Positions 2,308 through 16,944 of a stretch of 64,000 nucleotides of DNA are shown one piece after another. The stretch covers positions 1 through 64,000 of the forward strand of contig JBDHDE010000005.1 in assembly GCA_039591655.1 (NCBI GenBank), written 5' to 3'. The notes below the pieces were generated by a model that was given only the letters and a program-made list of their open reading frames with translations, did not search any database and was not told the origin of the DNA. The stretch comes from Gemmatimonadota bacterium. Its GTDB lineage: Bacteria; Gemmatimonadota; Gemmatimonadetes; Gemmatimonadales; GWC2-71-9. The position numbers and the translations under genes were made by a program. The stretch's first letter is position 1. Each line of letters opens with the position of its first letter.

Positions 2308-2502
2308 CCTGACTGAGACCCACCGAAGATTGGCCGATCCGTAACTGGCTTGCGTGACGGGGCTTGCGAGGGGTGTGGCGGATCATCTTGCCAGCACCAA
2401 AGGCTGGCGTGTCCACCAGTTGCGCCACGGCCGCGGGTTGGTCAAAACTAAGGTCTAAGCCGTTGGGAGCATAGGGATTCCGCCCGGAGGACGGGGCTTC
2501 TC
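2308..2502. repeat. Partial copy (5' ~195 bp) of a ~570-bp repeat family (block CTGACTGAGACCCACCGAAGATTGGCCGATCCGTAA...GGACGGGGCTTCT)
   Basis: Matches the 5' part of the full copies at 5299-5864 and 16367-16933 block-by-block (e.g. CCGCCACGGCCGCGGGWTGGTCAAAA, GGTCTAAGCCGTTGGGAGCATAGGGATTCCGCCCGGAGGACGGGGCT). Confidence 0.75.
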
Positions 2503-2532
2503 AGACCATTCCGATGCCGACCCGCTCGTGTC

Positions 2533-3864
2533 TCAGGCCGCCACCGTGCGCCGTATGAACTCGAAGCCCAAGGTGGCCAACTCCTCGAGCAGCGGCCTGT
2601 ACAGTTCCGGCAGGGTCGGCGGCATCCTCGCTCCTGAGGCCTGAATCTCACCCTCCAGCACCAGCCGCGCGGCGATGGCCGCCGGCAGGGCGACGGCACG
2701 GGACATCGCGGTCGCGCCATCGGGAATCCCCTCGACGTGCATGGTGGCCAGCCGTCGTTCCTTGCGGCCGCCGGGGAACTCCGCCAGGACGTCGACGTGG
2801 AGGAGGATCATGTCCCGCTCGCCGGGCGCGTAGGACATTCTCGCCAGCATCCGGTCCAGCAGCACATCGAGACAGGTCCCCTTCGAGACGGCGACCGGCC
2901 GGTCCTCGAACAGCCCCAGCCACTTCAGGCGATGGATGATGTCTGCCAGCCTGTCGAGCCCCAGGTACCGCGCCACCGCCGACTCGACGTCGTCGGTCGG
3001 GCCGGCCTCGACGAGCGAGGCCATGAACTGGCGGTAGCTCATCCCCTCGAAGCTCCGCTCGCGCTCCGAGTCGATCAGTCCCAGGGCCAGCATGTTGCGC
3101 ATGTTGTTGCAGTAGCCGGAAAAGCGCAGGAGTCCGCGGTAGAACGAGACCTTCTCCCTGTCGAGTCCGAAGGGCTCGACGTACTTCTCAACGTCCTTGT
3201 TGGGGTAGGACTCGAAGGTCCCCAGCCCCTCGATGTCCAGCAGCCAGAAGTTCTCGAACAGCTTGTCCCCCGGTACCTCGATCTTCTTCCCCTCCTCGAG
3301 GTATGCACCGGGCGTCTGGGCGGCCACGAACACCGTCCTCGGGTCCCAGGAGAACTTGTATCCCATGGGATTGCGATTGGACTCGAACGCCGGCAGTCCG
3401 CTGCCGTACGAGTTCAGGCGGATCACGCGTCCTCCCTCCTGCCGGATCTCGTCGAGCACCAGCTGGGTTCCCATGTGGTCCATTCCCGGTACCTCGCCCA
3501 GCTCGTTGAGAATCAGGACACCCTTCTGCCGGGCCTCCTCGTCCAGGGCCATGAGCTCGGGGATCTCGTAGGCGGTGGTCAACATGTGCGTGCCGTGCCG
3601 CAGGCACGCCCGCGCGACGTGAATGTGGACCGGCTTCGGCACCATGCTGATGGCCAAATCTGCTTCGCGGATTACCTCGTCGAGGATATCGGGCTCGTCC
3701 GTCGACCATCGAACCGCCTTGCCACCCGCCCGGTCCGCGATGACGTCCTCCGCCTTGGAGAGCGTTCGGTTCGCCACCGTCACGAAGTAACCGCACGTCT
3801 CCATGAGGTAGTCGACGAGCGGCCTCGTCATCCAACCCGCGCCGATGATCGCAACTTTCTTCAT
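2533..3864 (-). CDS. Saccharopine dehydrogenase family protein (Lys9/carboxynorspermidine-dehydrogenase-like), NAD(P)-binding
   Basis: N-terminus MKKVAIIGAGWMTRP (Rossmann GxGxxG) and the overall sequence resemble saccharopine dehydrogenase family proteins. Start chosen at ATG 3864 with SD GGAGGAG 5 nt upstream; the ORF-track start at 4011 is rejected as an N-terminal extension. Confidence 0.6.
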   Translation of the reverse strand: MKKVAIIGAGWMTRPLVDYLMETCGYFVTVANRTLSKAEDVIADRAGGKAVRWSTDEPDILDEVIREADLAISMVPKPVHIHVARACLRHGTHMLTTAYEIPELMALDEEARQKGVLILNELGEVPGMDHMGTQLVLDEIRQEGGRVIRLNSYGSGLPAFESNRNPMGYKFSWDPRTVFVAAQTPGAYLEEGKKIEVPGDKLFENFWLLDIEGLGTFESYPNKDVEKYVEPFGLDREKVSFYRGLLRFSGYCNNMRNMLALGLIDSERERSFEGMSYRQFMASLVEAGPTDDVESAVARYLGLDRLADIIHRLKWLGLFEDRPVAVSKGTCLDVLLDRMLARMSYAPGERDMILLHVDVLAEFPGGRKERRLATMHVEGIPDGATAMSRAVALPAAIAARLVLEGEIQASGARMPPTLPELYRPLLEELATLGFEFIRRTVAA

Positions 3865-4065
3865 GCTGCTCCTCCGGTTCTCTCGCTCCGGGGGCCGCTG
3901 GAGCCTCTGTGCGTTCGACATAGTGATCTTCAGCCGCCGACTTGGTCCTTGATCATATCGACGCTCCGCGCCCCCGGACGCTCTGTAAGAATACGGCTGG
4001 TAGGCCAACACGGCCAGAAGGCGTCATCGCCCGTGCAGGACGACGCGCGGTGCTGGGATCCGACG

Positions 4066-4104
4066 GACCCAGACTGAGACCCACCGAAGATTGGCCGATC
4101 CGTG
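4066..4104. repeat. Short fragment (5' conserved block only) of the repeat family: CCCAGACTGAGACCCACCGAAGATTGGCCGATCCGT
   Basis: Near-identical to the 5' blocks at 2308, 5314, 12806 and 16384. Confidence 0.7.
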
Positions 4105-4109
4105 AGCGT

Positions 4110-4128
4110 GGCGAGCGAAGCTCGCCAT
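4110..4128 (-). terminator. GC-rich hairpin (GGCGAGC-gaa-GCTCGCC) just downstream of the minus-strand regulator gene
   Basis: Perfect 7-bp stem with 3-nt loop 20 nt after the stop of CDS 4148-4474. No clear U-tract, so only a putative terminator. Confidence 0.25.
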
Positions 4129-4147
4129 TGAGCCTCGGCTCCCGTTG

Positions 4148-4474
4148 TCACTCCGGCAGATCTGCTAGCGCCTGTTGGATGTTCGCTCGGTATTGTCGGA
4201 ACGCCGTGCGGCCCTCGCTCGTGAGGCGGATCATCGTGCAGGGTTTCTTCCCCCGGAAGCTTTTCTCGACGGCCACGTAGCCGCTCTCCTCCAGCTTGCT
4301 CAGATGGGTGGAGAGGTTGCCCCACGTGAGGCCCGTCTGCCCGACCAGGAACGTGGCATCGGCTGCCTCGACGACATACAGCAGAGTCAACACCATCAGC
4401 CTCGCTGGGGCGTGGACCACTGGGTCGATCTTGCTCAGCGGATGCGGCTGTGAGTCGCCGGAGCGATCAGCCAT
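4148..4474 (-). CDS. Winged-helix transcriptional regulator (MarR/PadR/ArsR-like small wHTH), co-transcribed with the upstream membrane protein
   Basis: PARLMVLTLLYVVEAADATFLVGQTGLTWGNLSTHLSKLEESGYVAVEK is a typical wHTH recognition-helix/wing. Start placed at MADRS (4474), 4 nt after the stop of the upstream gene. Confidence 0.5.
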   Translation of the reverse strand: MADRSGDSQPHPLSKIDPVVHAPARLMVLTLLYVVEAADATFLVGQTGLTWGNLSTHLSKLEESGYVAVEKSFRGKKPCTMIRLTSEGRTAFRQYRANIQQALADLPE

Positions 4475-5117
4475 CGCGTGCGGCCGGTGACGGCCCATCA
4501 CCGACAGGGCCATGGCTCCGGACGAGAAGGGCAAACTTGATCAGACCGACGGCGGCGATCACCCCAGCCGTGATCCCAGCCACGACGGGGTAGCCGTGGT
4601 GGGAGACGTAGCCGCGGCGGAATAGCCACTCGCCGATCAACGATCCAGCGGCGAGCAAGATTCCGTAGAGGAAGAGACGCGGGATTTCCAGGAAGTACGC
4701 CGCTAGCGAGAAACCCACGAGAACGATCAGTGAGAACACGATCGGGATGAACGGTTCTCCCATTCCCCGTTCCACGGCGATGAACGCGATGATGCCCAGC
4801 AGCGCCGCGACCACGTTGAAGATCAGCATCACCACGGTGAATCCTCGCAGCCGCCTCTTGCGATACGGGCCAAACCGCACCAGCCCGACGCGAGGAACGA
4901 CGACGCGCTCTCTGATGAGTCGGATCGCCAGATAGACGCCTCCGTAGACGGGAAGGAAGATGGCCGAACTCCAGAAATCGCCCATCGTCCCGCTCAACAG
5001 CGGTGCGATAGCCAACATCGCCACCACACTTGCGAGGAACACGTCCCATAGCCCGTGATCGACTGCGGTTCTGAAGGCGCGACGTTCCGCCGCCTTCAAG
5101 TCGTCGCTTATCATCAT
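4467..5117 (-). CDS. Hypothetical polytopic membrane protein (about 6 TM)
   Basis: Hydrophobic helices throughout. Start reassigned to ATGATG at 5117 because a strong SD (AAGGAGGG) lies immediately upstream; the ORF-track start at 5132 (MSKEG) lacks an SD. Confidence 0.5.
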   Translation of the reverse strand: MMISDDLKAAERRAFRTAVDHGLWDVFLASVVAMLAIAPLLSGTMGDFWSSAIFLPVYGGVYLAIRLIRERVVVPRVGLVRFGPYRKRRLRGFTVVMLIFNVVAALLGIIAFIAVERGMGEPFIPIVFSLIVLVGFSLAAYFLEIPRLFLYGILLAAGSLIGEWLFRRGYVSHHGYPVVAGITAGVIAAVGLIKFALLVRSHGPVGDGPSPAARDG

Positions 5118-5125
5118 GCCCTCCT

Positions 5126-5204
5126 TTGACAAGCCTGCACACTCTCCATAAGAGTCCTTTGCTTGTCAAAGAACACTCTAAGGGAGAGTCCGCAGTTTGT
5201 CAAG
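5126..5204 (-). promoter_or_regulatory. Operator/promoter region with three TTGACAAG / CTTGTCAA half-sites and two ~33-bp direct repeats upstream of the membrane-protein/wHTH operon
   Basis: TTGACAAG at 5126-5133, CTTGTCAA at 5162-5169, TTGTCAAG at 5197-5204. Direct repeats TTTGACAAGCCTGCACACTCTCCATAAGAGTCC and TTTGCTTGTCAAAGAACACTCTAAGGGAGAGTCC. Likely binding sites for the co-encoded wHTH regulator (autoregulation). Confidence 0.4.
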
Positions 5205-5298
5205 ACATCGACCATTCGACTCGCATAACTATATGGTCTACAACGGCTTGCGGCGCGCGGCTTGTGGGGCCGGTCCTGTGACAAGAGTTGTTGTACCA

Positions 5299-5864
5299 GG
5301 GGACAGAAGCAGGCCCAGACTGAGACCCACCGAACATTAGCCGATCCGTAAGTGGCTTGCGTGACGGGGCTTATGAGGGGTGTGTCGGGTTATCTTACCA
5401 GCTCCTAAGGCTGGCGCGTCTACCAGTTCCGCCACGGCCGCGGGATGGTCAAAACTCAGGTCTAAGCCGTTGGGAGCATAGGGATTCCGCCCGGAGGACG
5501 GGGCTCCTCGGGGTTCTGGGGCGGGTCCAGGTCGACCTTCAGATGTGGTGTTTTCCCGCACGGTCGGCGGTTTGGTGGGGCATTCTCCTGTATCTCCGCG
5601 GGTCCAGATGCGGGTCCACCTCTACCGAATGTCCCACAACGACACTCGATGCCCCCGAACAGTCCTGGCCGCGCGGCTCTCTGAATTGCAGATTGGCAGG
5701 ACAAAGATCCTCAGGGCCACTCCCCGTCCGCCCAGCGTTTGGGCGGATTAGGCTGCGTGCACGGTATGCGTCCGCTTTCCAGCCTAATCCCAGGGTAGGG
5801 TCGTGTTGTGCTGCGAACCACGCGGCGTTGGGGTGTGGACGATGCAGTCTACTACTAGTTAGGC
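5299..5864 (+). repeat. Full-length copy 1 of the ~570-bp repeat family (5' block GGACAGAAGCAGGCCCAGACTGAGACCCACCGAA ... 3' module GGGCGGATTAGGCTG...CAGCCTAATC...GATGCAGTCTACTACTAGTTAGGC)
   Basis: Aligns block-wise with 16367-16933 (~75-80% identity, conserved blocks separated by variable stretches). The 3' module contains the hairpin GATTAGGCTG/CAGCCTAATC and ends in the attC-like core GTTAGGC (5858-5864). Confidence 0.8.
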
Positions 5865-5925
5865 AGCGGGCGACCGGCCGGCGAGGATCAAGAGTACGTC
5901 ACCCTATCCTTGGAGGACTCCGAAC

Positions 5926-6285
5926 ATGGCTAGACACGTGTCGTGGATCCTCGAACTCAACATTCAGCCGGGTCGCGAGAAGGACTTTCGCGGCCTGATG
6001 GAGGAAATGGTCAGCGCGACGAGAGCGAATGAGCCTGGAACTCTCGCCTACGAGTGGAGCACCAATGCGGACGGCACGGTCTGTCACATCTCTGAGCGAT
6101 ACGTCGACTCGGCCGCCGTGCTGCCCCATCTGGGGACGTTTGGCGAGAAGTTTGCGAGCCGCTTCCTAGACATCCTCAAGCCCGTGCGCTTCGTGGTGTA
6201 CGGCTCGCCAAGCGCGGCGGTCCAGGATGCCCTAGCTGGCTTCAACCCTGTGTATATGGAGCCTGTGGGCGGTTTCAGCCGATAG
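5926..6285 (+). CDS. ABM (antibiotic biosynthesis monooxygenase)-fold protein; putative gene cassette
   Basis: 119-aa ferredoxin-like ABM pattern (ILELNIQPGREKDFRGLMEEMVSATRANEPGTLAYEWS...). SD GGAGGA 8 nt upstream of ATG. Followed by an attC-like site. Confidence 0.5.
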   Translation: MARHVSWILELNIQPGREKDFRGLMEEMVSATRANEPGTLAYEWSTNADGTVCHISERYVDSAAVLPHLGTFGEKFASRFLDILKPVRFVVYGSPSAAVQDALAGFNPVYMEPVGGFSR

Positions 6286-6323
6286 GCGCGCAGCTCGCCG
6301 TTCGCGTGTTTGCGAGCCCGCTG

Positions 6324-6464
6324 CCTAGCACGCGCATGCAGCTGCGGAGGCGCGTGGGATCTAAAGGAAGTTGTGATTGTGCGCCAGGTGAGATCCAGAA
6401 CAGATGGCTTTCCCTGCAGCTGCCGGCCCATCGCGCCCGCAGCTCATGCGCGAAGTCGTTAGGC
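6324..6464 (+). other. attC-like recombination site (141 bp): GCCTAGCacGCGCATGCAGCTGCGG ... CCCGCAGCTCATGCGCgaagtcGTTAGGC
   Basis: The ends are inverted repeats of each other with asymmetric bulges. The 5' core GCCTAGC is near RYYYAAC and the 3' core GTTAGGC is exact GTTRRRY. Lies immediately after the ABM ORF and immediately before the next ORF (ATG 6480). Confidence 0.55.
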
Positions 6465-6479
6465 TGCGACGGGCGTAAG

Positions 6480-7163
6480 ATGGCGCACCACGGCACGCTT
6501 TCCCATGACGAGGCCCGGGCCTTCTACGACCACTTCGGTTCGAAGCAGGATTGGCAGCGCTTCTACGAGGGGCCGGCGCTAGTCGAGCTCATTCGGCACG
6601 GGTCCTTCGCAGAGGCGAGTGCCGTCGTGGAGTTCGGCTGCGGCACAGGGCGGCTGGCCGAGCTGTTGTTACAGAATCATCTGCCGGATAGCGCGACGTA
6701 TCTCGCGCTCGATATCAGCTCTACTATGGTCTCCCTCAGCCGGAACCGGCTCGCCCGCTTCGGCAACCGGGTCCGGGTTGCGCAAACCGGTGGGAGTCCG
6801 CTATTGGGCGAGCCATCCGCATCGTGCGACCGATTCATATCCAGCTATGTGGTGGATCTGCTGGCGGTTGATGATATCACGACGCTGATCGCAGAGGCGC
6901 ATCGACTGCTCCGTTGGAGTGGGCGGATTGGGTTCGTAGGGCTCACGCACGGTGCGACAGCTGCGGCGCGGCTCGTTGAGCACCTGTGGGTAGCCGTACA
7001 CCGCATACGCCCATCCTGGGTGGGCGGCTGTCGACCCGTGTCTCTAACTGATTTCGTAGGCTCGGAGTGGCAGGTGACTCATCATGGCGTGGTGACCAGC
7101 TTTGCGATATCGTCGGAGGTCATCGTGGCACAGAAGGTACCTCGAGTCACAGCGCGCGAGTAG
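6480..7163 (+). CDS. Class I SAM-dependent methyltransferase
   Basis: Motif I VVEFGCGTGRLAELL and overall Rossmann MTase layout. Start at ATG 6480 just after the attC core; the ORF-track start at 6306 would overlap the attC site. Confidence 0.65.
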   Translation: MAHHGTLSHDEARAFYDHFGSKQDWQRFYEGPALVELIRHGSFAEASAVVEFGCGTGRLAELLLQNHLPDSATYLALDISSTMVSLSRNRLARFGNRVRVAQTGGSPLLGEPSASCDRFISSYVVDLLAVDDITTLIAEAHRLLRWSGRIGFVGLTHGATAAARLVEHLWVAVHRIRPSWVGGCRPVSLTDFVGSEWQVTHHGVVTSFAISSEVIVAQKVPRVTARE

Positions 7164-7184
7164 CCTCCCCCTACCCCTGAGCCG

Positions 7185-9464
7185 ATGCCCCGCGCACATT
7201 GGGTGGGCATGGCAGACTTTGTGGAACTCCTGCGGGCCGCGCTACGCGGTCGCTACTCGATCGGACGCAAGCTTGGCGAGGGCGGCATGGCTGTCGTCTT
7301 TCTCGCGAAGGACGAGCGGCATGACCGGAGCGTCGCACTCAAGGTGCTCCGGCCGGATCTGGCCTCCGAGGTCGGCGCGGAGCGATTCTTGAGGGAGATC
7401 AAGATCGCGGCCAAGCTGACCCACCCGCACATCCTCCCCCTGTATGACTCCGGCGAGGCCGACGGCTTCCTGTTCTACGTGATGCCCCTCATGGAGGGAC
7501 GGTCGTTACGGGAGCGCGTTGACAAGGAACGGCAGCTTCCACTGGATGAAGCAGTTCGCATCACGCAGGAGGTCGCGTCGGCGCTCGACTACGCGCATCG
7601 CCATGGTGTCATTCACCGGGACATCAAGCCAGCGAACATCTTGCTCCACGAAGGGGCGGCCATGGTGGCCGACTTCGGGATTGGCAAGCTGGTGAGCGCA
7701 GCCGAGGGCAAGATCACACAGACCGGGATGGCAATCGGCACGCCAGCGTACATGAGTCCGGAACAGGCATCTGCGGATTTCGAAGTGGATGGCCGCAGCG
7801 ATCTCTACAGCCTCGGATGCGTCCTGTACGAGATGCTGTCCGGTGAGCCGCCATACACTGGACCCACCGCGCAGGCGGTGATCGCCAAGCGGCTCGGCGC
7901 GCCGGTTCCGCACGTCAAAGTGGTTCGTGACGTCGCCGATCCGGTGGACGCGGTCGTCACGAGGGCGCTCGCGCGCACGCCGGTCGACCGATTTGCCTCA
8001 GCAGCCGAGTTTGCCGCGGCGCTGCGGGATGCACAGAGCGGAACGTTGCATACTCCGGAGGCTGTGCTGGCCGTCGGACAGGCCGGTAGCGATATCAAAT
8101 CCGTTGCGGTGCTGCCGTTCGCCAACTTGAGCGCGGATCCCGAGAACGAGTACTTCAGCGACGGCATGACTGAGGAGATCATCAACGTTCTCGGCAAGGT
8201 ACCGGGCATCCAGGTTGCGTCACGCACGTCGAGTTTCGCCTTCAAGGGTAAGGACGTCGACGTGCGACAGATCGGAGAGAAACTGGGTGTTGGGATCGTG
8301 CTCGAGGGAAGCGTACGCAAGGTGGGCCAGCGGATCCGCATTACCACGCAGCTCACCGATGTCACCAACGGCTACAACCTCTGGAACGAGACGTACGACC
8401 GGCAACTGGAGGACGTGTTCGCCATTCAGGACGAGATCTCCCGAGCGATCGCGGACGCCCTCAAGGTCAAGCTCGTCGGCGATATGGGGAGACGGATGGC
8501 CCCCGCGCCGGAGAACCTCGAAGCGTACAACCTCTACCTAAAAGGACGCTTCTTCTACAACAAGTTCACCGAGGTCGATCTCCGGCGAGGCGTCGAGCTG
8601 TTTGAGCACGCCTTGAAGGAGGCCCCGAAGTATGCTCGTGCCCACGCCGGTATCGCGGACTGTTGGGCCTATCTCGCGGACGATTGGGTGGCCCCAGACG
8701 AGGCGTACCCCAAGGCGAAAGCATCCGCGATGCGCGCGCTCGACCTCGAACCGTCCCTCGGAGACGCGTTCACCGCGCTGGGCAAGGTGCTGTGCTGGTA
8801 CGAGTGGGATTTCGCGGGTGCCGAACGGGAGCTGACGAGTGCGGTGAACCTGAACCCGAACTCGGCCGAAGCGCGCTTTGTCTTGGGCAGCGCGTTGCCG
8901 TGCGTCGGCAAGCTCGACAGGGGACTCGAGGAGCTGCGGCAGGCGCTCGTACTCGATCCGCTCGCCCCGCTGTTCAGTCGGTGGGTGGGCCGCTACCTGC
9001 TCTTCTCGGGCGACTACGACGGCACGATCGAGCAGAGCGAGAAGACGCTGGAGCTGGACCCCAACTACTTCCACTCGTTCCTTGATATCGGCTCCGCCTA
9101 CCTCGGCAAGGGCGCTCCCGAACACGCCCTCGAGTGGTACCGGAAGGGCCAGTCACTGCCGTCCAGCGTCCGCTCGTATGATGCACACCTGGTTCGTGCA
9201 CTTGCGGCCACGGGCCAGCAGGAAGAAGCACAAGCGATCCTCGAGCGGCTCGAAAAGGAGGCTCAGGAGCACTACCTCAGATCTGAAGTGCTCGCGATGG
9301 GCTATGCCGCCGTGGGGGACTTCGATGGGGCGTTCGCCGGCCTCGAGCAGGCAGTTCGGTCGCGCTCGGGAGGGCTCATCTTCATCCACCTGGATCCTGG
9401 CTACGAACCGCTGCGGACGGATGCGCGGTTCGCCAGGATCGTCGAGCAGGTGGGGGTCAGGTAG
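7185..9464 (+). CDS. Ser/Thr protein kinase with C-terminal TM, TolB-N-like region and TPR repeats (complete paralogue of the kinase at 1-2211)
   Basis: Gly-rich loop LGEGGMAVVF, VALK Lys, HRDIKPANILL catalytic loop, DFG, APE (GTPAYMSPEQ). Then LPFANLSADPENEYFSDGMTEEI motif and TPR-like repeats. Confidence 0.85.
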   Translation: MPRAHWVGMADFVELLRAALRGRYSIGRKLGEGGMAVVFLAKDERHDRSVALKVLRPDLASEVGAERFLREIKIAAKLTHPHILPLYDSGEADGFLFYVMPLMEGRSLRERVDKERQLPLDEAVRITQEVASALDYAHRHGVIHRDIKPANILLHEGAAMVADFGIGKLVSAAEGKITQTGMAIGTPAYMSPEQASADFEVDGRSDLYSLGCVLYEMLSGEPPYTGPTAQAVIAKRLGAPVPHVKVVRDVADPVDAVVTRALARTPVDRFASAAEFAAALRDAQSGTLHTPEAVLAVGQAGSDIKSVAVLPFANLSADPENEYFSDGMTEEIINVLGKVPGIQVASRTSSFAFKGKDVDVRQIGEKLGVGIVLEGSVRKVGQRIRITTQLTDVTNGYNLWNETYDRQLEDVFAIQDEISRAIADALKVKLVGDMGRRMAPAPENLEAYNLYLKGRFFYNKFTEVDLRRGVELFEHALKEAPKYARAHAGIADCWAYLADDWVAPDEAYPKAKASAMRALDLEPSLGDAFTALGKVLCWYEWDFAGAERELTSAVNLNPNSAEARFVLGSALPCVGKLDRGLEELRQALVLDPLAPLFSRWVGRYLLFSGDYDGTIEQSEKTLELDPNYFHSFLDIGSAYLGKGAPEHALEWYRKGQSLPSSVRSYDAHLVRALAATGQQEEAQAILERLEKEAQEHYLRSEVLAMGYAAVGDFDGAFAGLEQAVRSRSGGLIFIHLDPGYEPLRTDARFARIVEQVGVR

Positions 9465-9933: not shown

Positions 9934-10305
9934 ATGGACCTCGGTGCATTCTCGATCAGCTTGGCAGTGAAGGACATCGGAGCATCGAAGGAGTTTTACG
10001 AGAAGCTCGGTTTCGAAGTCTTCGGCGGCGATGCCTCGCAGAACTGGCTGATCATGAAGAATGGCGATCACGCGATCGGGCTCTTTCAGGGAATGTTCGA
10101 GAAGAACACCCTGACATTCAATCCTGGCTGGGACAGTAACGCCCATGAGCTCGATACCTACACAGATGTCCGCGAGCTACAGCGTCATCTGAAGGAGCAG
10201 GGAGTAGAGCTGATCAGCGAGGCGGACGAGAGCACCTCCGGACCCGCGAGTTTTATCGCAGTGGATCCTGATGGAAACCCGATCCTCGTCGATCAGCATG
10301 TCTGA
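9934..10305 (+). CDS. VOC (glyoxalase/bleomycin-resistance/dioxygenase) family protein; putative cassette
   Basis: [29 protein letters not shown] is a VOC beta-alpha-beta-beta-beta module. Start at ATG 9934 with SD AAGGAG 6 nt upstream; ORF-track start at 9907 rejected. Confidence 0.6.
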
Positions 10306-10327
10306 GCCATTGCACGCGCCCCTGGGC

Positions 10328-10449
10328 GGATTAGGCTGCACGCACGTTATGGGCGACAGCTCGCAGCCTGTTGCCGAGGTATGTTTGGTGTTAGACGGAG
10401 TATTCGGCAGGGCGGCAGTACAGATGACTCAGTCTAATACTAGTTAGGC
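10328..10449 (+). repeat. Stand-alone copy of the repeat family's 3' module (GATTAGGCTGC...GCAGCCT hairpin ... GATGACTCAGTCTAATACTAGTTAGGC), attC-like
   Basis: Matches 5746-5864 and 16813-16933. Ends in GTTAGGC (10443-10449); an additional GTTAGAC at 10391-10397. Confidence 0.6.
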
Positions 10450-10507
10450 GGATGCCCGTGCCACTCCGGAGCAGCGCCGACTTCGCTCCCATGCAACCGG
10501 GGCACCT

Positions 10508-10852: not shown

Positions 10853-10933
10853 CAGGCGGGCCCCGGAGTCATCTGACTCTGGATCACTGGACCCGCTCCG
10901 CACTCTCCATGTTGCCTACCCAAAGGCCCGCCC

Positions 10934-10989
10934 TTGACACCCCACTCACCATATTGTACTATATGACCATAACACTAGTATTATAGTAC
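10934..10989 (+). promoter_or_regulatory. Sigma70-like promoter (TTGACA-17-TACTAT) overlapped by palindromic operator GTACTATA-N18-TATAGTAC upstream of the GntR gene
   Basis: -35 TTGACA at 10934-10939, 17-bp spacer, -10 TACTAT at 10957-10962. Inverted repeat GTACTATA (10956-10963) / TATAGTAC (10982-10989), the GT..AC-type palindrome typical of GntR operators. Confidence 0.5.
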
Positions 10990-11006
10990 GCAAGGGATAC
11001 GGAACC

Positions 11007-11381: not shown

Positions 11382-12487
11382 TCCACCGAACCTCCAAACA
11401 CCACCGTCCCGGGAAGTCGCAATTTGGGATCTCCCTTGAGAGATTCGCCACTTCGAGCCGGGCCGACTTTCGATTCGCACCCCTCAACGCCCTGTTGCTG
11501 GTGGCAATGTTCGTGATCGGGCTGACGGTGCACCTGAACGTACACGAGTTCACGATAAAGGCTGTCTACCTCTCCCTTGGATCGGCGCTGGGCCTCACTA
11601 TCCTCATTCGTTGGACCCAGGTGTGGGAAGCCGTCGTCATCCTCGGCACCGCCGTCTGCCTGACGATCTTCCTCGAGCTGCGTCCGAACAGCGAGATCCT
11701 GCTGGCGACCGCCATCGTGGCGCTGCTCGTGTCTCCCGCTGTCCAGATCGCCTACCAGTGGGAGCGGGCCGTGCTGCTCCGCTTCGGCAAGTTTTGTGGA
11801 TTGCGCAAGTCGGGTCTGTTTCCCGTCGTGCCGGTGATCGACAAGGTGGCCCAGTTCGTGGACCAGCGAATCCGGGTAACCGACTTCAGCGCCGAGACGA
11901 CCCTCACCGCCGATACGGTCCCGGTCAACGTGGACGCCATCGCGTTCTGGATGGTGTGGGACGCGGAGAAGGCGGTCCTGGAGGTGGAGCAGTTCGACGA
12001 CGCGGTGATCATGTCGGCACAGACGGCCCTGCGGAACGCCATCGGGAAGAATGACCTGGCAGTGCTGCTTTCCGAGCGTGACCGGTTGGGCAGCGAGATT
12101 CAGAAGCTGCTCGACTCGAAGACCAACGCCTGGGGCATCACCACCGAGGCAGTGGAGATCCGCGACATCATCATTCCCGAGGCTCTCGAAGATGCCATGT
12201 CGCGCCAGGCCCAGGCGGAGCGGGAGCGCCAGAGCCGCATCATCCTCGGCACTGCCGAGACCGAGATTGCGGAGAAGTTCGCCAAAGCGTCGGAGCATTA
12301 CCAGGACAACAGCGTCGCCCTGCATCTGCGGGCGATGAACATGGTCTACGAGGGATTGCGGCAGAAAGGCTCGATGGTCATCGTGCCCTCCACCGCAGTG
12401 GAGAGCATGGGCCTGGGAGCCCTCGGCGGGTTGACCGCCCTTGGCCGTGACGTGACTCCGCAAGACGCAGACCACGCCGAACCATGA
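11378..12487 (+). CDS. SPFH/band-7 (stomatin/prohibitin/HflKC-like) domain membrane protein
   Basis: N-terminal TM helices, then an SPFH core (PVIDKVAQFVDQRIRVTDF...TADTVPVNVDAIAFWMV...EIRDIIIPEALEDAMSRQAQAERERQSRI). SD GGGAGGAG; translationally coupled to the GntR gene. Confidence 0.7.
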   Translation: MIHRTSKHHRPGKSQFGISLERFATSSRADFRFAPLNALLLVAMFVIGLTVHLNVHEFTIKAVYLSLGSALGLTILIRWTQVWEAVVILGTAVCLTIFLELRPNSEILLATAIVALLVSPAVQIAYQWERAVLLRFGKFCGLRKSGLFPVVPVIDKVAQFVDQRIRVTDFSAETTLTADTVPVNVDAIAFWMVWDAEKAVLEVEQFDDAVIMSAQTALRNAIGKNDLAVLLSERDRLGSEIQKLLDSKTNAWGITTEAVEIRDIIIPEALEDAMSRQAQAERERQSRIILGTAETEIAEKFAKASEHYQDNSVALHLRAMNMVYEGLRQKGSMVIVPSTAVESMGLGALGGLTALGRDVTPQDADHAEP

Positions 12488-12542
12488 GCACGCAGACAGT
12501 TAGGTGCCCGGTTAGGCACGGCAACACGAAAGGGGGATCAAC

Positions 12543-12746
12543 ATGAAGCCGGCTGCAACGGTAGCCATCGTATTCCTTCTCCTGGTCGCGCTCGTGCATT
12601 TGCTCCGCCTGCTCTTCGGCGTTGCGATCACCGTGAGTGATACGACCATTCCAATGTGGGCGAGTGTCCTGGCCGTCATGGGCCCTGGAGCTCTGGCAGT
12701 GTGGTTGTGGCGCGAACAGTCCGCACCCCGCACGCCGACCGCCTAA
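12543..12746 (+). CDS. Small (67 aa) two-TM membrane protein
   Basis: MKPAATVAIVFLLLVALVHLLRLLFGVAITV... is hydrophobic. Its TAA stop lies inside the GCCTAAC core of the following attC-like site. Confidence 0.4.
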   Translation: MKPAATVAIVFLLLVALVHLLRLLFGVAITVSDTTIPMWASVLAVMGPGALAVWLWREQSAPRTPTA

Positions 12747-12795
12747 CGCGCGGCGGGCACGCGGGCGTTTCAGACGGAATGTCATGACGTTGGGC
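12741..12795 (+). other. attC-like site (55 bp): GCCTAAC ... GTTGGGC
   Basis: Exact RYYYAAC and GTTRRRY cores. The stop codon of the upstream ORF is embedded in the 5' core, as is common in integron cassettes. Confidence 0.45.
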
Positions 12796-12838
12796 AGAAA
12801 GCGGGCCCAGACTGAGACCCACCGAAGATTGGCCGATC
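12792..12838. repeat. Fragment (5' conserved block) of the repeat family, starting inside/right after the attC-like 3' core: GGGCAGAAAGCGGGCCCAGACTGAGACCCACCGAAGATTGGCCGATC
   Basis: Near-identical to the 5' blocks at 5299, 16367, 4066 and 2308. Confidence 0.7.
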
Positions 12839-12994
12839 ACCCGGGCTCTCTTTCTGAAGGGAGCTGCGGTACTGAAGCTCAAGGTGGCACAGCGCCCGGC
12901 CCCATGCCGGGCGCTGTTGTTTCCGGTCCAAGAATCCCGACGAGTGCTCGCCTTCACACACCAGTCGGCGCGGGCAAACCTCGCCTCTCGCGCT

Positions 12995-13960
12995 TCAGTT
13001 CGTGATCGTCGCCGTTCCGGTCGGCAAGGGACTCAAGGCGGTGATCGTCCGCTGGTCCGTCGGCCCACCATCGCCAAATGGATTCCCAAACGGCTTGAGT
13101 TGAAACGGTACGGCCGCGAGCGTCGCCTCGCCTTCGTCGAACGTGGGTTCGATCGAGATTACGTGCATCCACTCGCTGTCGCCGGTCACCTGGTCGTCCC
13201 CATTGAAGTCGAAGGGAAGCGCAATACCCCCGGGCACTGTATTTCCGTTGTCCATCACGAAGTCTCCGCCGGGGAAGGGTGGGCCGGCGCCCAAATCACC
13301 GGGCGCACCCGACAACGGCCCGGCGGCGTCACTGTCCCGTGTGCTCACCGTGCCGCCCGCCTGAGGCTCGTACTTACCGTAGGAGATGGCAGTCTGCATG
13401 GCGGTACCCGGCCTGTGAACGACCCAACCCTCGTAGACCCAACCGTCGGTGAGCGGTGGAAGCGTGACTGATGGGTCGGGTGCGCCGGAGGGATCGAGCA
13501 GCCAGATGCCCCCGTCGTCATCGCTGCCGGTCGTGGTAGTCGGCGTCAGCAGCACGTGGGTGCCCGGGGTCGTCGCGAAGTCGGCCGAACTGCTCACAGT
13601 GACGAACCCGAGGGCCGAAAGCGTCGCCATCCCGCTGGAGAACGCTCCGCCCAGGAGCTTCTGATCGGATGGGATGTCGTCAGTGTCGCCAGGCGGTTCG
13701 ACAGTGAGCACGAACATCATGGGCTCGGCGATCGGACTGGTGAACGTGTGCTGCCCGGAGGCTTCGAGATCGAACTTGCCCGTCGAGAACGGCGATCCAC
13801 TCGCGTCGATGACCCAACCTTCGTACGTACCCTCGGTCGCCGCGTCGAGGGCTGCGAGATCTTGGAACGCGACGTCGAGCGTCGCCATCTCTGGTCCTTC
13901 GTCTCCGCAGGCGACGAGTGCCGCGATCGCGAGGACGCCGACGTATCGCTTGAGCAACAT
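12995..13960 (-). CDS. Hypothetical lipoprotein (lipobox LVAC), Gly/Asp/Thr-rich secreted protein
   Basis: Signal peptide MLLKRYVGVLAIAALVACGDEG. SD GGAGGT 6 nt upstream of ATG. Confidence 0.5.
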   Translation of the reverse strand: MLLKRYVGVLAIAALVACGDEGPEMATLDVAFQDLAALDAATEGTYEGWVIDASGSPFSTGKFDLEASGQHTFTSPIAEPMMFVLTVEPPGDTDDIPSDQKLLGGAFSSGMATLSALGFVTVSSSADFATTPGTHVLLTPTTTTGSDDDGGIWLLDPSGAPDPSVTLPPLTDGWVYEGWVVHRPGTAMQTAISYGKYEPQAGGTVSTRDSDAAGPLSGAPGDLGAGPPFPGGDFVMDNGNTVPGGIALPFDFNGDDQVTGDSEWMHVISIEPTFDEGEATLAAVPFQLKPFGNPFGDGGPTDQRTITALSPLPTGTATITN

Positions 13961-14040
13961 GGGTTACCTCCGCACGAGATGAGAGTGTACGGAGGAAGCT
14001 GGTTTGGGCGCGACAGTGTTTGAAGGGAAGACTCCGAAGG

Positions 14041-14054
14041 TTAGAGCTTTCTAA
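14041..14054. promoter_or_regulatory. Palindromic box TTAGAGCTTTCTAA (copy 1), ~85 bp upstream of the lipoprotein gene and just downstream of the HK stop
   Basis: Exact 14-mer also at 16191-16204 upstream of the response-regulator gene. Extended here to GGTTAGAGCTTTCTAACC (7-bp arms). Confidence 0.45.
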
Positions 14055-14061
14055 CCTGCCT

Positions 14062-15465
14062 TTAATCTCCGGCCGGAAGCCAAAGCACGAAACGACTGCC
14101 TTTGTTCGGCGTGCTCTCCACCGATATGCTTCCGGCTTGGAGCTGTGCGAGCATGCGGGCGATGGTGAGACCCAAGCCCGCACCTCCGTGGGCACGACTG
14201 CGCGATCCCTCCACCCGTTCGAAGCGGTCGAAGACTCGGTCGAGGTCGTTCTCCGCAATCCCTACACCGGTGTCCGTGACGGAGACTCCGACCATGCCGT
14301 CCCTCCGCTGGAGCTCGAATAGGATGCTCCCCCTTGAGGTGTAGCGGACTGCGTTGGACGCCAGGTTCAAGAGGATTTGCCGCGTGCGATCGGCGTCACC
14401 GAGCGCCTCCGCGGAGTCTGTGAGGTCGGCCTTCACATCGATGTCGCGCCCCGATGCCATCGCTTGGGTTACTTCCTCCACATCCCGCGCGACTTCGGCG
14501 AGATCGAACGGCTGCAGCGCGAGCTCGAGCTGCTGGTTCTCACCACGAGCGATGAGGAGCAGGTCCTCGATCATCTTCGTTGTCTGATCGACCTCGCGCG
14601 CAATCTCCCCAAGTGCCTCACGCATCTCTTCGAGCGACCGGTGCTCAGCTAGCGCCCACTGGGCTTGCGCACGCAGATGTGTGAGTGGCGTTCGCAGTTC
14701 GTGACTCGCGTCTGCGGTGAATGCCTCGAGGGCAGCATTGGCTCGCTCCACGCGGGCGATCAGACGATTGATCTCGTCGGCCAGCTGGGTGACCTCGGTC
14801 AGACCCGTAGGGCTGGTGACTCGCTCAGAGAGATCCCGCGGATCGATCTGTTGCGTCTCTTCGACTGTCCGCGCGAATGGGATGAGCGCCGCGAGGATCG
14901 TGCGGCGCGTTGCGCGCTGTGCGACTAACGCTGCCGCTGGCAGGAGTGCGAGGGCCACGATACCCAGGCCGAGCATCGCAACCAGGTATGGGACTCGACT
15001 GCCGGCGACGAAGATGTCGAAGTCGCCCGCACGCCGATGGCCGACCCGGTAACGCCATCGACCGCGCTCGGCGATCACGGTCACCAGCTGCCGCCGCACC
15101 TGGTTGTGTGACGCATCCGGTGCCACTCGGACCTCTTTAGCCGGCATCGTCGGCGACAGGAAGTACACGGTGCGGTCGCCTCCCTCGGTCGCTATGGCGC
15201 GAGTGATCAGAAAGGGTTCGCTCATCTCCAAGAGCTGATCCGCCAGCATAGCCGGGGCGACGGACGTGCGCTCCCCGCCGGGATCCGCGTACAGCCCCAG
15301 GAGCGACTGAACGACGTCGGCGGAGTGATCGAGCGCCCGGCGGAGCGAGAGTTCACTCACCAATGCCGAGGCGCCGATCACGATGACTGCGTACACGATG
15401 AGGGTGTGCCAGAGGACGCGGCTCAAGCTCGCAGCCAGCCGTTGACGGAGGCGAGGTTCCATCAT
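14062..15465 (-). CDS. Sensor histidine kinase (HAMP + HisKA + HATPase_c), 2 TM
   Basis: H-box FTADASHELRTPLT, N/G boxes (LNLASNAVRYT, DTGVGI, GGAGLGL). Start at ATGATG overlapping the RR stop (ATGATGA). Confidence 0.8.
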   Translation of the reverse strand: MMEPRLRQRLAASLSRVLWHTLIVYAVIVIGASALVSELSLRRALDHSADVVQSLLGLYADPGGERTSVAPAMLADQLLEMSEPFLITRAIATEGGDRTVYFLSPTMPAKEVRVAPDASHNQVRRQLVTVIAERGRWRYRVGHRRAGDFDIFVAGSRVPYLVAMLGLGIVALALLPAAALVAQRATRRTILAALIPFARTVEETQQIDPRDLSERVTSPTGLTEVTQLADEINRLIARVERANAALEAFTADASHELRTPLTHLRAQAQWALAEHRSLEEMREALGEIAREVDQTTKMIEDLLLIARGENQQLELALQPFDLAEVARDVEEVTQAMASGRDIDVKADLTDSAEALGDADRTRQILLNLASNAVRYTSRGSILFELQRRDGMVGVSVTDTGVGIAENDLDRVFDRFERVEGSRSRAHGGAGLGLTIARMLAQLQAGSISVESTPNKGSRFVLWLPAGD

Positions 15466-16136
15466 GTCGCCTCCAGCCGATAGCCCACCCCGCGCACGGT
15501 GCGGATTCTCGCTCCCGCCGTGTGGAGATCGAGTTTCTTTCTCAAGTAGTTGATGTACACGTCCACCACGTTCGTCTCCGGGTCGAAGTGGTAGTCCCAC
15601 ACGGCTTCGGCGATGCGCGATCGGGAGACCGTGCGGCCGGCGTTTCGCATCAAGAACTCGAGGAGCGCCAACTCGCGGGGGCTCAAGTCGACGGTGCGGT
15701 CGGCGCTCGAGACACGCCGCTGTAACGTATCCACTCGTAGCTGTCCGACTTCGAGTGTCGTGTCCCGATGCCGTAGCTTGGCGCGCCGAATCAGGGCAAC
15801 GATGCGAGCCATGAGTTCGGGAAGATCGAACGGCTTGGTCAGGTAATCATCCGCACCGCCTTCCAGGCCGCGGACCCGATCGTCGAGATCGTGGCGTGCA
15901 GTGAGGAGCAGAATCGGCGTCGTCACGCCTCGCTGCCGCAGCTCGGCCACGACGCTGAACCCGTCGCGCCCCGGCAGCATCACATCAAGCACGATGCAGG
16001 CGTAGTCGCCTTTCAACGCGCGGTCGAGCCCCCGGTCACCGGATTCCGCGTAATCAACGGCGTAACCCTCTTCACGCAACGCCTTGCGCAGAAACGCGCG
16101 CAGGTTTCGGTCGTCTTCCACCAACAGAATCTTCAT
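15462..16136 (-). CDS. OmpR-family response regulator (REC + winged-helix)
   Basis: MKILLVEDD...DVMLPGRDG receiver, with C-terminal trans_reg_C (LSPRELALLEFLMRNAGRTVSRSRIAEAVW...GVGYRL). Confidence 0.85.
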   Translation of the reverse strand: MKILLVEDDRNLRAFLRKALREEGYAVDYAESGDRGLDRALKGDYACIVLDVMLPGRDGFSVVAELRQRGVTTPILLLTARHDLDDRVRGLEGGADDYLTKPFDLPELMARIVALIRRAKLRHRDTTLEVGQLRVDTLQRRVSSADRTVDLSPRELALLEFLMRNAGRTVSRSRIAEAVWDYHFDPETNVVDVYINYLRKKLDLHTAGARIRTVRGVGYRLEAT

Positions 16137-16190
16137 GAGTAAGGAAGGTAGGACTCTGCTCGGGGCCAGGGCAACGGCGAGAGCCCTCGA

Positions 16191-16204
16191 TTAGAGCTTT
16201 CTAA
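16191..16204. promoter_or_regulatory. Palindromic box TTAGAGCTTTCTAA (copy 2), ~60 bp upstream of the RR-HK operon
   Basis: Exact 14-bp match to 14041-14054. Both copies sit in promoter-proximal positions of minus-strand genes. Confidence 0.45.
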
Positions 16205-16366
16205 TGACTGGAAGCGGAAGGGAGCTGTGGTGCTCTCAACCGTCCGTCGCAACCCGCACCAACAACTGGTAATCGGGAAGCCCGCTATGTTGGCCCGAGT
16301 CTGCGTCTCATAAGCGCCAGCGCTAGCTACCGGTCATGGGGTGCCGTAGCGGGAGCTATCCTGCCG

Positions 16367-16933
16367 GGGGACAGAAGCGGGCCCAGACTGAGACCCACCG
16401 AAGATTCCCCAATTCGTAAGTCGCCTTCCTGAAGGGGTTTGCGAGGGCTTGGGCGGCTCTGCAGACCAGCTCCTAAGGCTGGCGCGTCTACCAGTTTCGC
16501 CATGGCCGCGGGATGGTCAAAAGTAATGTCTAAGTCGTTGTGGCCATAGTGGTTCTGCCCAAAGGACGGGGCTTCTGGGGGTCCTGGGGCGGGTCGTCGA
16601 TCCGCAGATGTGCTGTCTTCCCGTACGGTCGGCGGTTTTGCAGGGCATTCTCCCGTATCTCCGCGGGTCCAGATGGCGGGTCCACTGCGTCGAAGGTCCC
16701 AGATCAGGCACACGGTGCCCCCGAACAGTCCTGGCCACGCGGGTTTCCGAATCGCAGATTGGCAGGACGGAGATCTCCACGATCGCTCCCTGTCCACGTA
16801 GCGCATGGGCGGATTAGGCTGCAAGCGGAATGGGCTGGGGTGCTCGCAGCCTTATCCCGGCGGAGGTTCACGTTAGGCTGCGCGCGGTGCGCCAGTGGGG
16901 GAGGGAAAGATGCAGTCTACTACGAGTTGGGCG
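16367..16933 (+). repeat. Full-length copy 2 of the ~570-bp repeat family, ending in attC-like cores (GTTAGGC at 16873-16879, GTTGGGC at 16927-16933)
   Basis: Block-wise alignment to 5299-5864: GGGACAGAAGCGGGCCCAGACTGAGACCCACCGAAGATT, CCAGCTCCTAAGGCTGGCGCGTCTACCAGTT, GCATTCTCCYGTATCTCCGCGGGTCCAGATG, CCCCCGAACAGTCCTGGCC, GCAGATTGGCAGGAC, GGGCGGATTAGGCTGC, GATGCAGTCTACTAC. Confidence 0.8.
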
Positions 16934-16944
16934 GCGGGGGTCAG

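Follow-up and report, generated by a model that had tools for sequence, protein, structure and literature searches.

The window analysed here, a 64-kb stretch of a Gemmatimonadota contig, carries a repeat of approximately 570 bp in two full copies (A and B) and four partial ones, where chance would be expected to give none, in a region that also holds HTH/membrane and antisigma/HK/RR gene modules and ABM, glyoxalase and GNAT cassettes (Table 1). The full copies are 78.5% identical over 581 nt, as compared with the roughly 75-80% proposed by an earlier sequence-only reading of this DNA, which had also placed the repeats correctly to within a few bases. The conserved blocks and diverged spacers that it described are real, with A and B sharing 8 perfectly matched stretches of 15 nt or longer against 2.6 in shuffled sequences (P ~0.0002). 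The 20-mer CCNGACTGAGACCCACCGAA was observed five times for an expectation of 0.01, and the block of about 40 nt occurs five times within 15 kb and not at all in the other 48 kb of the window. The absence of real ORFs from the unit, also claimed in that reading, agrees with the lack of any Pfam match on the inner ORFs and with the single-base indels by which A and B differ.

Structurally the unit is mosaic and combines three independent modules: M5 (~210 bp), Mid (~210 bp, present in the two full copies only) and M3 (~150 bp). The modularity first suggested from the sequence is genuine; the 5' module, the 40-nt block and the 3' module each recur alone. M5 occurs without M3 (copy J1, and L003 beside malQ) and M3 without M5 (the copy at 10296, and L018-L021), so the full unit does not constitute a single mobile entity. 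The partial inverted repeats that had been proposed at its two ends come down to 6-8 nt in common, and no terminal inverted repeats joining the unit ends were found at a seed of 7.

Table 1. Repeat modules and neighbouring recombination sites, with their positions in the window
Feature	Position	Strand	Description and evidence
M5 copy J1	2292..2504	+	block, tail, relic, upstream homology; ~90 nt past the stop of a kinase/TPR gene
tRNA relic of J1	2391-2434	-	anticodon UUG
Block-only copy J2	4061..4106	+	left-hand direct repeat of HTH/membrane module
Full copy A (M5 + Mid + M3)	5296..5863 (alignment to 5870)	+	ends ACTAG/TTAGGC, start of ABM cassette
M5 of copy A	5297..5511	+	block, tail, antisense tRNA-Leu 5' half, promoter-proximal homology; nhmmer, alignments
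Block in copy A	5307..5349	+	right-hand direct repeat of HTH/membrane module
tRNA-Leu(UAG) relic, copy A	5398..5441	-	Rfam RF00005, 19.3 bits (gathering score 29)
tRNA-Leu upstream-region copy (~50 nt, promoter-proximal), copy A	5442..5492	-	alignment; z = 16.9 against shuffles
Mid of copy A	5512..5712	+	non-coding spacer, three direct GCGGGTCCA 9-mers
M3 of copy A	5713..5863	+	attC/attI-type site: predicted long-range stem; RTTRGRC core-like sites, three in direct orientation; GGATTAGGCTG/CAGCCTAATCC as inner hairpin; terminal GTTAGGC
Long canonical attC, ABM cassette	6323..6464	+	context
Lone M3 copy	10296..10449 (also delimited as 10320-10454)	+	3' recombination site of glyoxalase cassette; outer stem overlaps stop codon
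Short canonical attC	12742..12796	+	GTTGGGC core precedes the 12797 block
Block + ~30 nt of tail	12797..12868	+	left-hand direct repeat, antisigma/HK/RR module
Full copy B (M5 + Mid + M3)	16364..16933 (alignment to 16938)	+	ends ACGAG/TTGGGC, start of GNAT cassette
Block in copy B	16375..16417	+	right-hand direct repeat, antisigma/HK/RR module
tRNA-Leu(UAG) relic, copy B	16466..16509	-	Rfam, 19.5 bits, E = 0.27
Mid of copy B	16580..16785	+	two GCGGGTCCA 9-mers
M3 of copy B	16786..16933	+	attC/attI-type site

A tRNA-Leu relic and its 40-nt block

Read on the minus strand, M5 holds the promoter-proximal stretch (about 50 nt) and the initial 44 nt of the host tRNA-Leu(UAG) gene, joined to an unrelated tail of about 100 nt whose last ~40 nt are the block. 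An intact tRNA-Leu(UAG) gene was located in the related genome L034, about 3 kb off and beyond a kinase gene, and alignment of M5 to it gave z = 21-29 for the 5' half and 5.5-17 for the upstream 50 nt. No homology links the tail to the 3' half or downstream sequence of the L034 gene (z -1.8 to 1.9), nor is the block tRNA-derived by alignment to that gene. The relic region is also ~90% identical to annotated tRNA-Leu genes in the phage collection, and J1 (2303-2502) is 91% identical to the M5 of copy A.

The relic holds the acceptor 5' strand, the D arm and the anticodon arm, without the T arm or the 3' acceptor strand. ARAGORN found no tRNA in the window, and no T-arm motif was found in the window or related loci. 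The relic fails as a complete tRNA, scoring below the RF00005 gathering score with an incomplete cloverleaf, and its homology to the intact gene and flank identifies it as a tRNA-Leu gene fragment (a pseudogene). A permuted, split or intron-bearing tRNA was considered and rejected, there being no T arm or 3' acceptor strand nearby and a tail unlike the 3' half of a tRNA. Among the M5 copies the tRNA half is 88% conserved, the block 86%, the upstream part 77% and the tail 76%. The anticodon loop varies (UAG, UAA or UUG).

The tRNA origin is absent from the sequence-only reading; the best-conserved block, CCAGCTCCTAAGGCTGGCGCGTCTACCAG, is the antisense 5' half of the host tRNA-Leu gene. That the copies might be fragments of a known att-type region, a possibility which that reading had set against its own proposal, is borne out in part by this relic.

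The block recurs as direct repeats around gene modules. Two such pairs lie in the window, 4061/5307 around the HTH and membrane genes and 12799/16375 around the antisigma/HK/RR genes, and a third, 9738/12488, surrounds an amidohydrolase with an HTH/membrane module in L034. In each of these three modules, from two genomes, a block-only copy is paired with a full M5 and the genes all lie on the minus strand; the distal block is absent from two other modules (L038 and L001), so that direct repeats of the kind found around inserted island DNA are present at three modules and missing at two. The sequences to the left of the block are of two classes, which sort imperfectly into attL and attR, the exceptions being the 12797 and L002 copies, and the 12797 block begins 0-13 nt 3' of the attC core GTTGGGC. 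The only symmetry within the block is a mirror repeat (CCCAGA-CTG-AGACCC). No GTT triplet occurs on either strand of it, so the block has no attC cleavage triplet or palindromic architecture.

The family is restricted to a few Gemmatimonadota MAGs and to one variable locus. In a collection of 185,579 species genomes the block was found in only 3 species-representative MAGs, all Gemmatimonadota, each with 1-2 copies at one locus (1-5 copies per genome overall). A metagenome scan and two viral scans returned chance 17-19-mers or nothing. Neighbour-gene look-ups gave the same population at >98% identity or homologous operons without M5. Breakpoints between related genomes coincide with module edges: homology of the window to L002 (97.7% identical) starts exactly at 4068, in the block core, and homology to L003 stops at 5501, at the M5 edge. 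When malQ was used to look for the locus in an empty or ancestral state, L038 proved an informative variant, and synteny was lost in L041 and L042 at 83-85% protein identity. In L038 the same antisigma/HK/RR module is followed by block and tail, to which an attC half-site and cassettes are directly joined. Because block and tail there run straight into the half-site, the junction between tail and tRNA is itself a breakpoint.

The integron-type site M3

The array around the repeat is integron-type, because the canonical long attC of the ABM cassette is present, and M3 is itself a site of attC/attI type. Its terminal cores (GTTAGGC or GTTGGGC, at 5857, 10443 and 16927) conform to GTTRRRY, and the next cassette begins at each of them; M3 both closes cassettes and heads cassette runs (A, B and L018). 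The tie to attC sites noticed from the sequence holds, because the 3' module is of attC/attI type and an attC core adjoins one of the 5' blocks. An attC scan recovered the canonical sites only, not M3. The 5' end of M3 lacks a complementary R'' box (RYYYAAC), no AAC partner lies upstream of the outer stem, and the terminal core is unpaired in the predicted folds. In A and B the pairing energies are -18.8 and -17.2 kcal/mol for the cognate stem arms and -8.4 to -14.4 kcal/mol for non-cognate arms, whereas at 10296 the non-cognate arm is the more stable (-16.5 against -13.4 kcal/mol). In L018 the cognate arm is best by a small margin, and overall the M3 stems have z = -1.1 to -2.4. The whole unit as one giant attC, with the block pairing the M3 end, was rejected, the complementarity amounting to 6-8 nt and the R'' box being absent.

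No tyrosine or serine recombinase or IntI was detectable in the 64-kb window or in any fetched locus. With an approximate IntI1 query, tblastn against the window and all fetched loci gave no match at E ≤ 0.1. The search of the window alone produced one weak alignment inside an SPFH gene (E = 0.02, 27% over 75 residues), which was judged to be chance. A degraded intI inside the unit was also discarded, the IntI1 alignments there having E ≥ 0.08 and stop codons, with no Pfam match.

Explanations and comparison with known systems

Because the unit is pieced together from a broken copy of the host tRNA-Leu gene, a junction sequence of 40 bp that flanks inserted gene modules and an integron-type site, it is most likely the scar tissue of a gene-shuffling hotspot, and neither a new RNA gene nor a transposon. 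We give about an even chance to the more specific explanation that the repeat is a composite, non-coding, DNA-level junction module of a Gemmatimonadota chromosomal hotspot of gene shuffling. In this reading M5 is a pseudo-tRNA, a minus-strand copy of the host tRNA-Leu(UAG) gene from about -50 to +44, fused to an unrelated tail, and the block would be a joining site for small gene modules without a recombinase of their own, each insertion leaving one block within M5 and a second, unaccompanied block at the module's distal end. M3 would be the integron-type (attC/attI-like) site that closes the unit and from which the plus-strand cassettes start. The full copies, because they combine the M5 block with the M3 site, would represent junctions of both types placed back to back. 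The anatomy, the tRNA origin, the pairing of blocks as direct repeats and the position of breakpoints on module edges are shown by the sequences; for the block we infer a role as crossover segment of a site-specific recombinase whose gene lies elsewhere in the genome.

Several observations count against this junction-module explanation: the failure to find a recombinase or IntI in the window and fetched loci, a relic made of the 5' half and promoter side with a block that is not tRNA sequence, paired blocks that are ~80-93% identical, two modules without a distal block, and the imperfect sorting into attL and attR. Since there are only about six independent copies, we also retain homologous recombination between old duplicates as a possibility. 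Such passive duplication is a minor but real prospect. An ancestral intergenic tRNA relic with tail and attC would have been copied within the array, through homologous recombination or segmental duplication; the block-only copies would be what deletions left behind, and the block would have no specific use. This view would agree with the 9-22% divergence and indels among copies, the 7-nt internal deletion in the L038 block, a degenerate second flank-like sequence 3' of the 12797 block, the missing recombinase and the modules lacking a distal block. However, it does not readily account for the pairing of a block-only copy with a full M5 three times in two genomes, for breakpoints at the block edge between near-identical genomes, or for a 19-nt block core that is invariant in 10/10 copies next to a tail conserved at 76%.

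It is unlikely that IntI moved the full unit as an integron cassette without an ORF, one that would begin at a degenerate core (GGGGAC, cf. TTGGGC at 12791) and finish at the M3 attC, partial copies then arising through recombination at attC x attC or secondary sites. The size is typical for a cassette, a GTTRRRY core stands at the end where the next cassette starts, the 12797 copy lies right after an attC core with a flank (GGGCAGAAAGC) resembling GGGGACAGAAGC of A and B, and cassettes with attI-type ends are known in mobile integrons (PMC12901181). The separate occurrence of M5 and M3 is contrary to this idea, as are the 5' ends of A and B, which have no GTT core, the absence of a GTT triplet from both strands of the block and the failure to find intI.

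A functional RNA or promoter module seems to us quite improbable. The retained upstream region and 5' half of tRNA-Leu would here drive a minus-strand transcript, either a tRNA-like sRNA of ~150 nt or a leader into the co-oriented modules. This would fit the tRNA half being the best-conserved part, the anticodon stem intact in 5/5 copies, the next downstream gene co-oriented with M5 in 4/5, and a possible block hairpin, which forms on the minus strand only because it needs 4 G-U pairs. The sequence-only reading had itself offered a cassette-associated ncRNA as one option, and had proposed searching Rfam with the unit and testing an alignment of its copies for covariation. Neither search favours an RNA. 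The unit is absent from Rfam except for the sub-threshold partial tRNA match, even at E ≤ 10 over the full copies, and 1/44 predicted pairs is compensatory (covariation term +2.48 kcal/mol), in a test that has low power because it rests on 5 sequences; as to conservation, copies do exist in a few related MAGs, confined to the one locus. Fold stability of the unit relative to shuffles gives no signal (z +1.1 to -1.25). Furthermore, no sigma-70-like promoter or terminator is predicted inside the unit, homology to the intact gene begins only ~50 nt upstream, some copies carry changes at universally conserved positions of the tRNA (U8 to G in L003; D-stem mismatches), and the operons downstream are served by a promoter and operator of their own. 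Promoter capture by the relic was set aside on the lack of a consensus promoter and the ~50-nt extent of upstream homology, and is kept as a minor rival.

A long shot is that the 570-bp unit may be a two-faced, integrase-less cassette platform, with a GTT-less 40-bp site on the tRNA-Leu side catching co-oriented multi-gene modules and an attI/attC-like site catching integron cassettes, the block then being a second, undescribed capture system beside the integron array. A MITE targeting attC, also put forward in the sequence-only reading, or an IS or group IIC-attC intron fragment with that target, is very improbable: one block copy does abut an attC core and the block has 6-8 nt of complementarity to the M3 end, but the unit lacks terminal inverted repeats, its flanks show no target-site duplication, the few copies per genome are not dispersed, Rfam gave no group II intron domain or other such match at E ≤ 10 in either full copy, and the plasmid collection gave no match to the repeat and the phage collection tRNA-Leu matches only.

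If the block is a true recombination site, this lineage assembles multi-gene modules of regulators, two-component systems and enzymes at a tRNA-derived locus, through a site unrelated to attC and beside a classical cassette array, which would widen the view of how sedentary arrays grow outside Proteobacteria. If it reflects only decaying duplication, the locus is an ordinary mosaic of pseudo-tRNA and attC. Under either reading, the 'novel motif' with the highest conservation is part of a tRNA gene.

Compared with the borders (attL/attR) of tRNA-targeting islands, the locus is similar in having a partial host tRNA copy that borders variable DNA, ~40-bp direct repeats around gene sets, and insertions stacked at one place. 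Classical tRNA-targeting elements duplicate the 3' end of the tRNA, whereas here the promoter side and 5' half make up the relic, the segment that repeats lies ~60 nt past it and is not of tRNA origin, the modules have no integrase and the intact tRNA-Leu gene of L034 stands at a distance. As a tRNA-targeting att site, the block has the direct repeats, but it is not a tRNA 3' end and has no integrase. The pdif modules of Acinetobacter are recombinase-less modules between short sites for host recombinases, and they offer a possible analogy in their 1-3 genes without a recombinase of their own and short conserved bounding sites; they would differ in that the block has no dif-like XerC/XerD arms and its repeats are direct, not inverted.

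Likeness to integron attC sites and to CALINs, clusters of cassettes that lack intI, is seen in the GTTRRRY core of M3 at which the next cassette starts, in a site following an ORF at 10296-10449, in a predicted long-range imperfect stem whose sequence varies among copies, and in a canonical attC array of small promoterless cassettes with no intI within 64 kb. Unlike attC, M3 has no R'' box, carries three direct core-like sites and has an inner hairpin of inverted polarity, and M5 and the block have neither attC features nor a GTT triplet. Cassette ends of attI type (delta-attI) have been documented in mobile integrons (PMC12901181), and M3 is comparable to them in heading cassette runs (A, B and L018) with repeated direct core-like motifs and in one copy that closes a cassette inside the array, a likeness of layout and not of sequence similarity. 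In contrast to those ends, M3 has no adjacent intI and is present in several copies per array.

Modular anatomy of the repeat

Self-comparison of 1-20000 confirmed the repeat family where the sequence-only reading had placed it, with a 256-nt family of three members (2265, 5272 and 16340), a 43-nt family of five (2300, 4061, 5307, 12799 and 16375) and 3'-end families common to 5827, 10412 and 16895. The core 20-mer of the 5' block was counted five times in the window, with 0.01 expected by chance. By BLAST, the full units at 5296-5870 and 16364-16938 (copies A and B) align over 581 nt with 78.5% identity, and 2303-2502 aligns with the 5299 copy over 200 nt with 91% identity. Mismatches between A and B are clustered and the two copies are identical over eight uninterrupted stretches of 15 nt or more, where shuffles give 2.6 (P ~0.0002), so the pattern of conserved blocks and diverged spacers described earlier stands. 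Single-base indels separate A and B, and the inner open reading frames matched no Pfam family; the unit is therefore non-coding, as had been proposed. The partial inverted repeats reported at its termini were not sustained, since the two ends have only 6-8 nt in common and no inverted repeat links them at seed 7.

At the level of sequence, the ~570-bp unit resolves into three separable modules, M5, Mid and M3, with boundaries taken from profile searches and comparison with related genomes. M5 is found without the rest of the unit, including in L001 and in L003/L034, where the copy directly adjoins malQ. Mid holds five of the eight window copies of the 9-mer GCGGGTCCA, for which 1.4 are expected across the whole window, and this may be a protein-binding motif.

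Features of the repeat and its locus (L numbers are loci from related genomes, L034 being a 207-kb contig of the L003 genome; other positions are those of the window)
Feature	Position	Length or strand	Remarks
M5	5297-5511, 16365-16579, 2292-2504	~210 nt	by profile search
Block alone	4061-4106; 12797-12868; L002; L034 9733-9775		first 40 nt of M5
Mid		~210 nt	confined to full copies A and B
GCGGGTCCA 9-mers in Mid	5521, 5598, 5610 (A); 16663, 16676 (B)		direct
M3	standalone at 10296-10449 and in L018-L021	~150 nt	
Genuine tRNA-Leu(UAG)	L034 6727-6809	minus	adjoins tig-clpP-clpX
Block pair	left 4061, right 5307 (in M5)		encloses HTH regulator and membrane protein
Block pair	left 12799, right 16375 (in M5)		encloses anti-sigma, histidine kinase and response regulator
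Block pair	left L034 9738, right L034 12488 (in M5)		encloses amidohydrolase and HTH/membrane pair as at 4061-5307
Block with tail	L038 8653-8790		block with 7-nt internal deletion (CCCAGTCCCACC); tail abuts attC 3' half (…GAAGTCGTCAGGC)
Small cassettes	5864-18540	plus	ABM, two glyoxalase, GNAT, alpha/beta hydrolase
Canonical attC (examples)	6323-6464, 12742-12796, 17452-17492		

A tRNA-Leu relic and a junction block in M5

At a permissive threshold, each full copy gave one Rfam match, a tRNA on the minus strand (19.3 and 19.5 bits, both below the tRNA gathering score of 29). This match spans only the acceptor 5' strand, D arm and anticodon arm; ARAGORN found no tRNA, and no T arm was found near M5. 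The segment 5396-5442 is ~90% identical to annotated tRNA-Leu genes (BLAST, phage records). M5 also matches the first 44 nt of the genuine tRNA-Leu(UAG) of L034 (z 21-29) and the 50 nt upstream of it (z 5.5-17), which establishes its tRNA origin. The tail, the ~100-nt non-tRNA stretch of M5 that holds the block, resembles neither the 3' half of the tRNA nor the flank beyond it (z -1.8 to 1.9). M5 is a pseudo-tRNA-Leu joined to foreign sequence and, from its homology to the tRNA-Leu gene, the best-conserved block of the sequence-only reading, CCAGCTCCTAAGGCTGGCGCGTCTACCAG, is therefore antisense to part of a tRNA gene. Universal tRNA positions are lost in some copies, and the anticodon loop has drifted, reading UAG in A, B and L001, UUG in J1 (the M5 copy at 2292-2504) and UAA in L003. 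Conservation across M5 is 86% in the block, 88% in the tRNA half, 76% in the tail and 77% in the upstream part. The L034 tRNA gene is divergent from a Ser/Thr kinase gene, past whose stop codon the variable region begins; the same kinase-then-block layout is present at window 2211-2300. The tRNA-Leu(UAG) locus of the window genome itself is predicted to sit immediately past the contig end, left of the kinase gene at 19-2211.

Each of three gene sets has a block-only copy on one side and a full M5 on the other, in direct orientation. The two window sets are encoded on the minus strand, and L034 has the amidohydrolase on one strand and the HTH/membrane pair on the other. Breakpoints between related genomes coincide with module edges. 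L002 (97.7% identical) and the window diverge precisely at 4068, the block core, and the homology of L003 with the window ends at 5501, the M5 edge. In L038, a two-component module 92% identical to that of the window is followed by block and tail and then directly by an attC half-site, so that the tail/tRNA junction is also a breakpoint; beyond the attC 3' half come two cassettes (GNAT and membrane protein) and malQ. All ten copies have an identical 19-nt block core, and the block is not an IntI-type core because the GTT triplet is absent from both its strands.

The left flanks of the block (window 2290-2310, 4055-4068, 5296-5314, 12790-12806 and 16364-16382; L003, L002, L001 and L038) fall into two classes. 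The first, CCAGGGGRCMGAAGCRGG, is found in A, B, L003 and L038, with the 12797 and L002 copies similar; the second, GACGGRYCC, is found in J2 (the block-only copy at 4061-4106), L034-9738, J1 and L001. These could be attP-side and attB-side arms, the sorting being imperfect. Past the 12797 block, window 12845-12875 carries GGGAGCTGCGGTACTGAAGC, resembling the extended left flank that precedes the block in B and L002, and this may be the scar of a further rearrangement.

The M3 site and the surrounding array

M3 is an integron-type site, not a textbook attC. Its terminus, GTTAGGC or GTTGGGC, is the exact start of the next cassette. A glyoxalase cassette has the M3 at 10296-10449 as its 3' site, and the outer stem of this M3 overlaps the stop codon; in L018, M3 has a divergent operon on one side and the first cassette on the other. 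A long-range imperfect stem is present in every copy, with a sequence that varies from copy to copy. Cognate arms of A and B pair at -18.8 and -17.2 kcal/mol against -8.4 to -14.4 for non-cognate arms, a preference less clear in the other two copies. Unlike attC, M3 has no R'' box complementary to its terminal core; it has three direct core-like motifs (RTTRGRC then TGC, spaced by ~55-60 nt) together with an inner hairpin whose polarity is inverted, and in these respects is closer to an attI-type site. Cassettes with attI-type ends have been documented in mobile integrons (PMC12901181).

The region ~5864-18540 is an integron-type array. It also contains unusually large multi-gene segments, a methyltransferase with a kinase (6480-9464) and GntR with SPFH (11007-12487). 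A tblastn search with an IntI1 query detected no integron integrase in the window or any fetched locus. The window belongs to a 71,852-nt contig of a Gemmatimonadota MAG, JBDHFM010000004.1 (GCA_039590415.1; JGI Ga0452215_000950), which extends 66 nt further to the left. The first 26 kb (1-26000) have a GC content of 0.61-0.65 and the remainder (26000-64000) a higher one, 0.66-0.72, as expected if the left part is acquired or flexible DNA.

The window has four Ser/Thr kinase genes that seem to be paralogous (19-2211, 7185-9464, and 41176-44535 and 45516-48707 on the minus strand), one of them inside the cassette array; the first two, which were scanned against Pfam, have TPR repeats. Further kinase genes lie at variable-region edges in L001 and L034. 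AT-rich, repeat-bearing intergenic sequences at 5120-5215 and 10930-10990, upstream of the HTH/membrane operon and the GntR gene respectively, may be operators, the former beside a minus-strand TTGACA-17-TAGAGT promoter match. Identity between L001 and the window (94%) is limited to the final 230 nt of the gene at 18610-20376; just past its stop codon (window 20381 / L001 3427) L001 continues instead with a kinase gene and a copy of M5, suggesting that the lineage has a second variable junction.

Probable recombination-junction DNA and its alternatives

The 570-bp repeat is best interpreted as recombination-junction DNA. The tail attached to the tRNA-Leu relic would supply a 40-bp site at which gene modules lacking a recombinase are joined, and the integron-type site M3, combined with the relic module, would head plus-strand cassettes. 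Module anatomy, tRNA origin, direct-repeat pairing and breakpoint positions are demonstrated; site-specific recombination at the block is what we infer. The interpretation is weakened by the lack of any visible recombinase, by repeats that are only 80-93% identical, and by two modules that have no distal block. A further weakness is that the relic is a tRNA 5' half, the segment duplicated by classical tRNA-targeting elements being the 3' end.

That the copies duplicated passively and then decayed is a live rival reading, and so is the possibility that the unit is an ORF-less cassette mobilised by IntI. That a second cassette-capture site operates beside the integron array seems quite improbable. 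A role as RNA or promoter is a lesser alternative. Minus-strand fold z-scores of five M5 copies range from +1.1 to -1.25, which gives no support to the structured RNA suggested earlier; in the consensus fold (five sequences, with low power) one of 44 pairs is compensatory and the covariation term is positive, and no sigma-70-type promoter or intrinsic terminator was predicted inside the unit. The MITE-like element also suggested earlier is essentially excluded, and an IS is argued against, by the lack of terminal inverted repeats and of any target duplication at the unit and by a rare, local distribution: the block is in only three Gemmatimonadota MAGs of the genome collection (one or two copies each, at one locus), with only chance matches in metagenome and viral scans and no match in the plasmid collection.

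Compared with known systems, the components of the repeat are of familiar kinds: a pseudo-tRNA and att-type repeats, as found at variable loci, and integron sites within an array that has no intI. It is the arrangement that is unusual, with a 5'-half relic, a non-attC 40-bp junction bracketing multi-gene modules, and the fusion of that junction to an attI/attC-like site, all confined to one Gemmatimonadota lineage.
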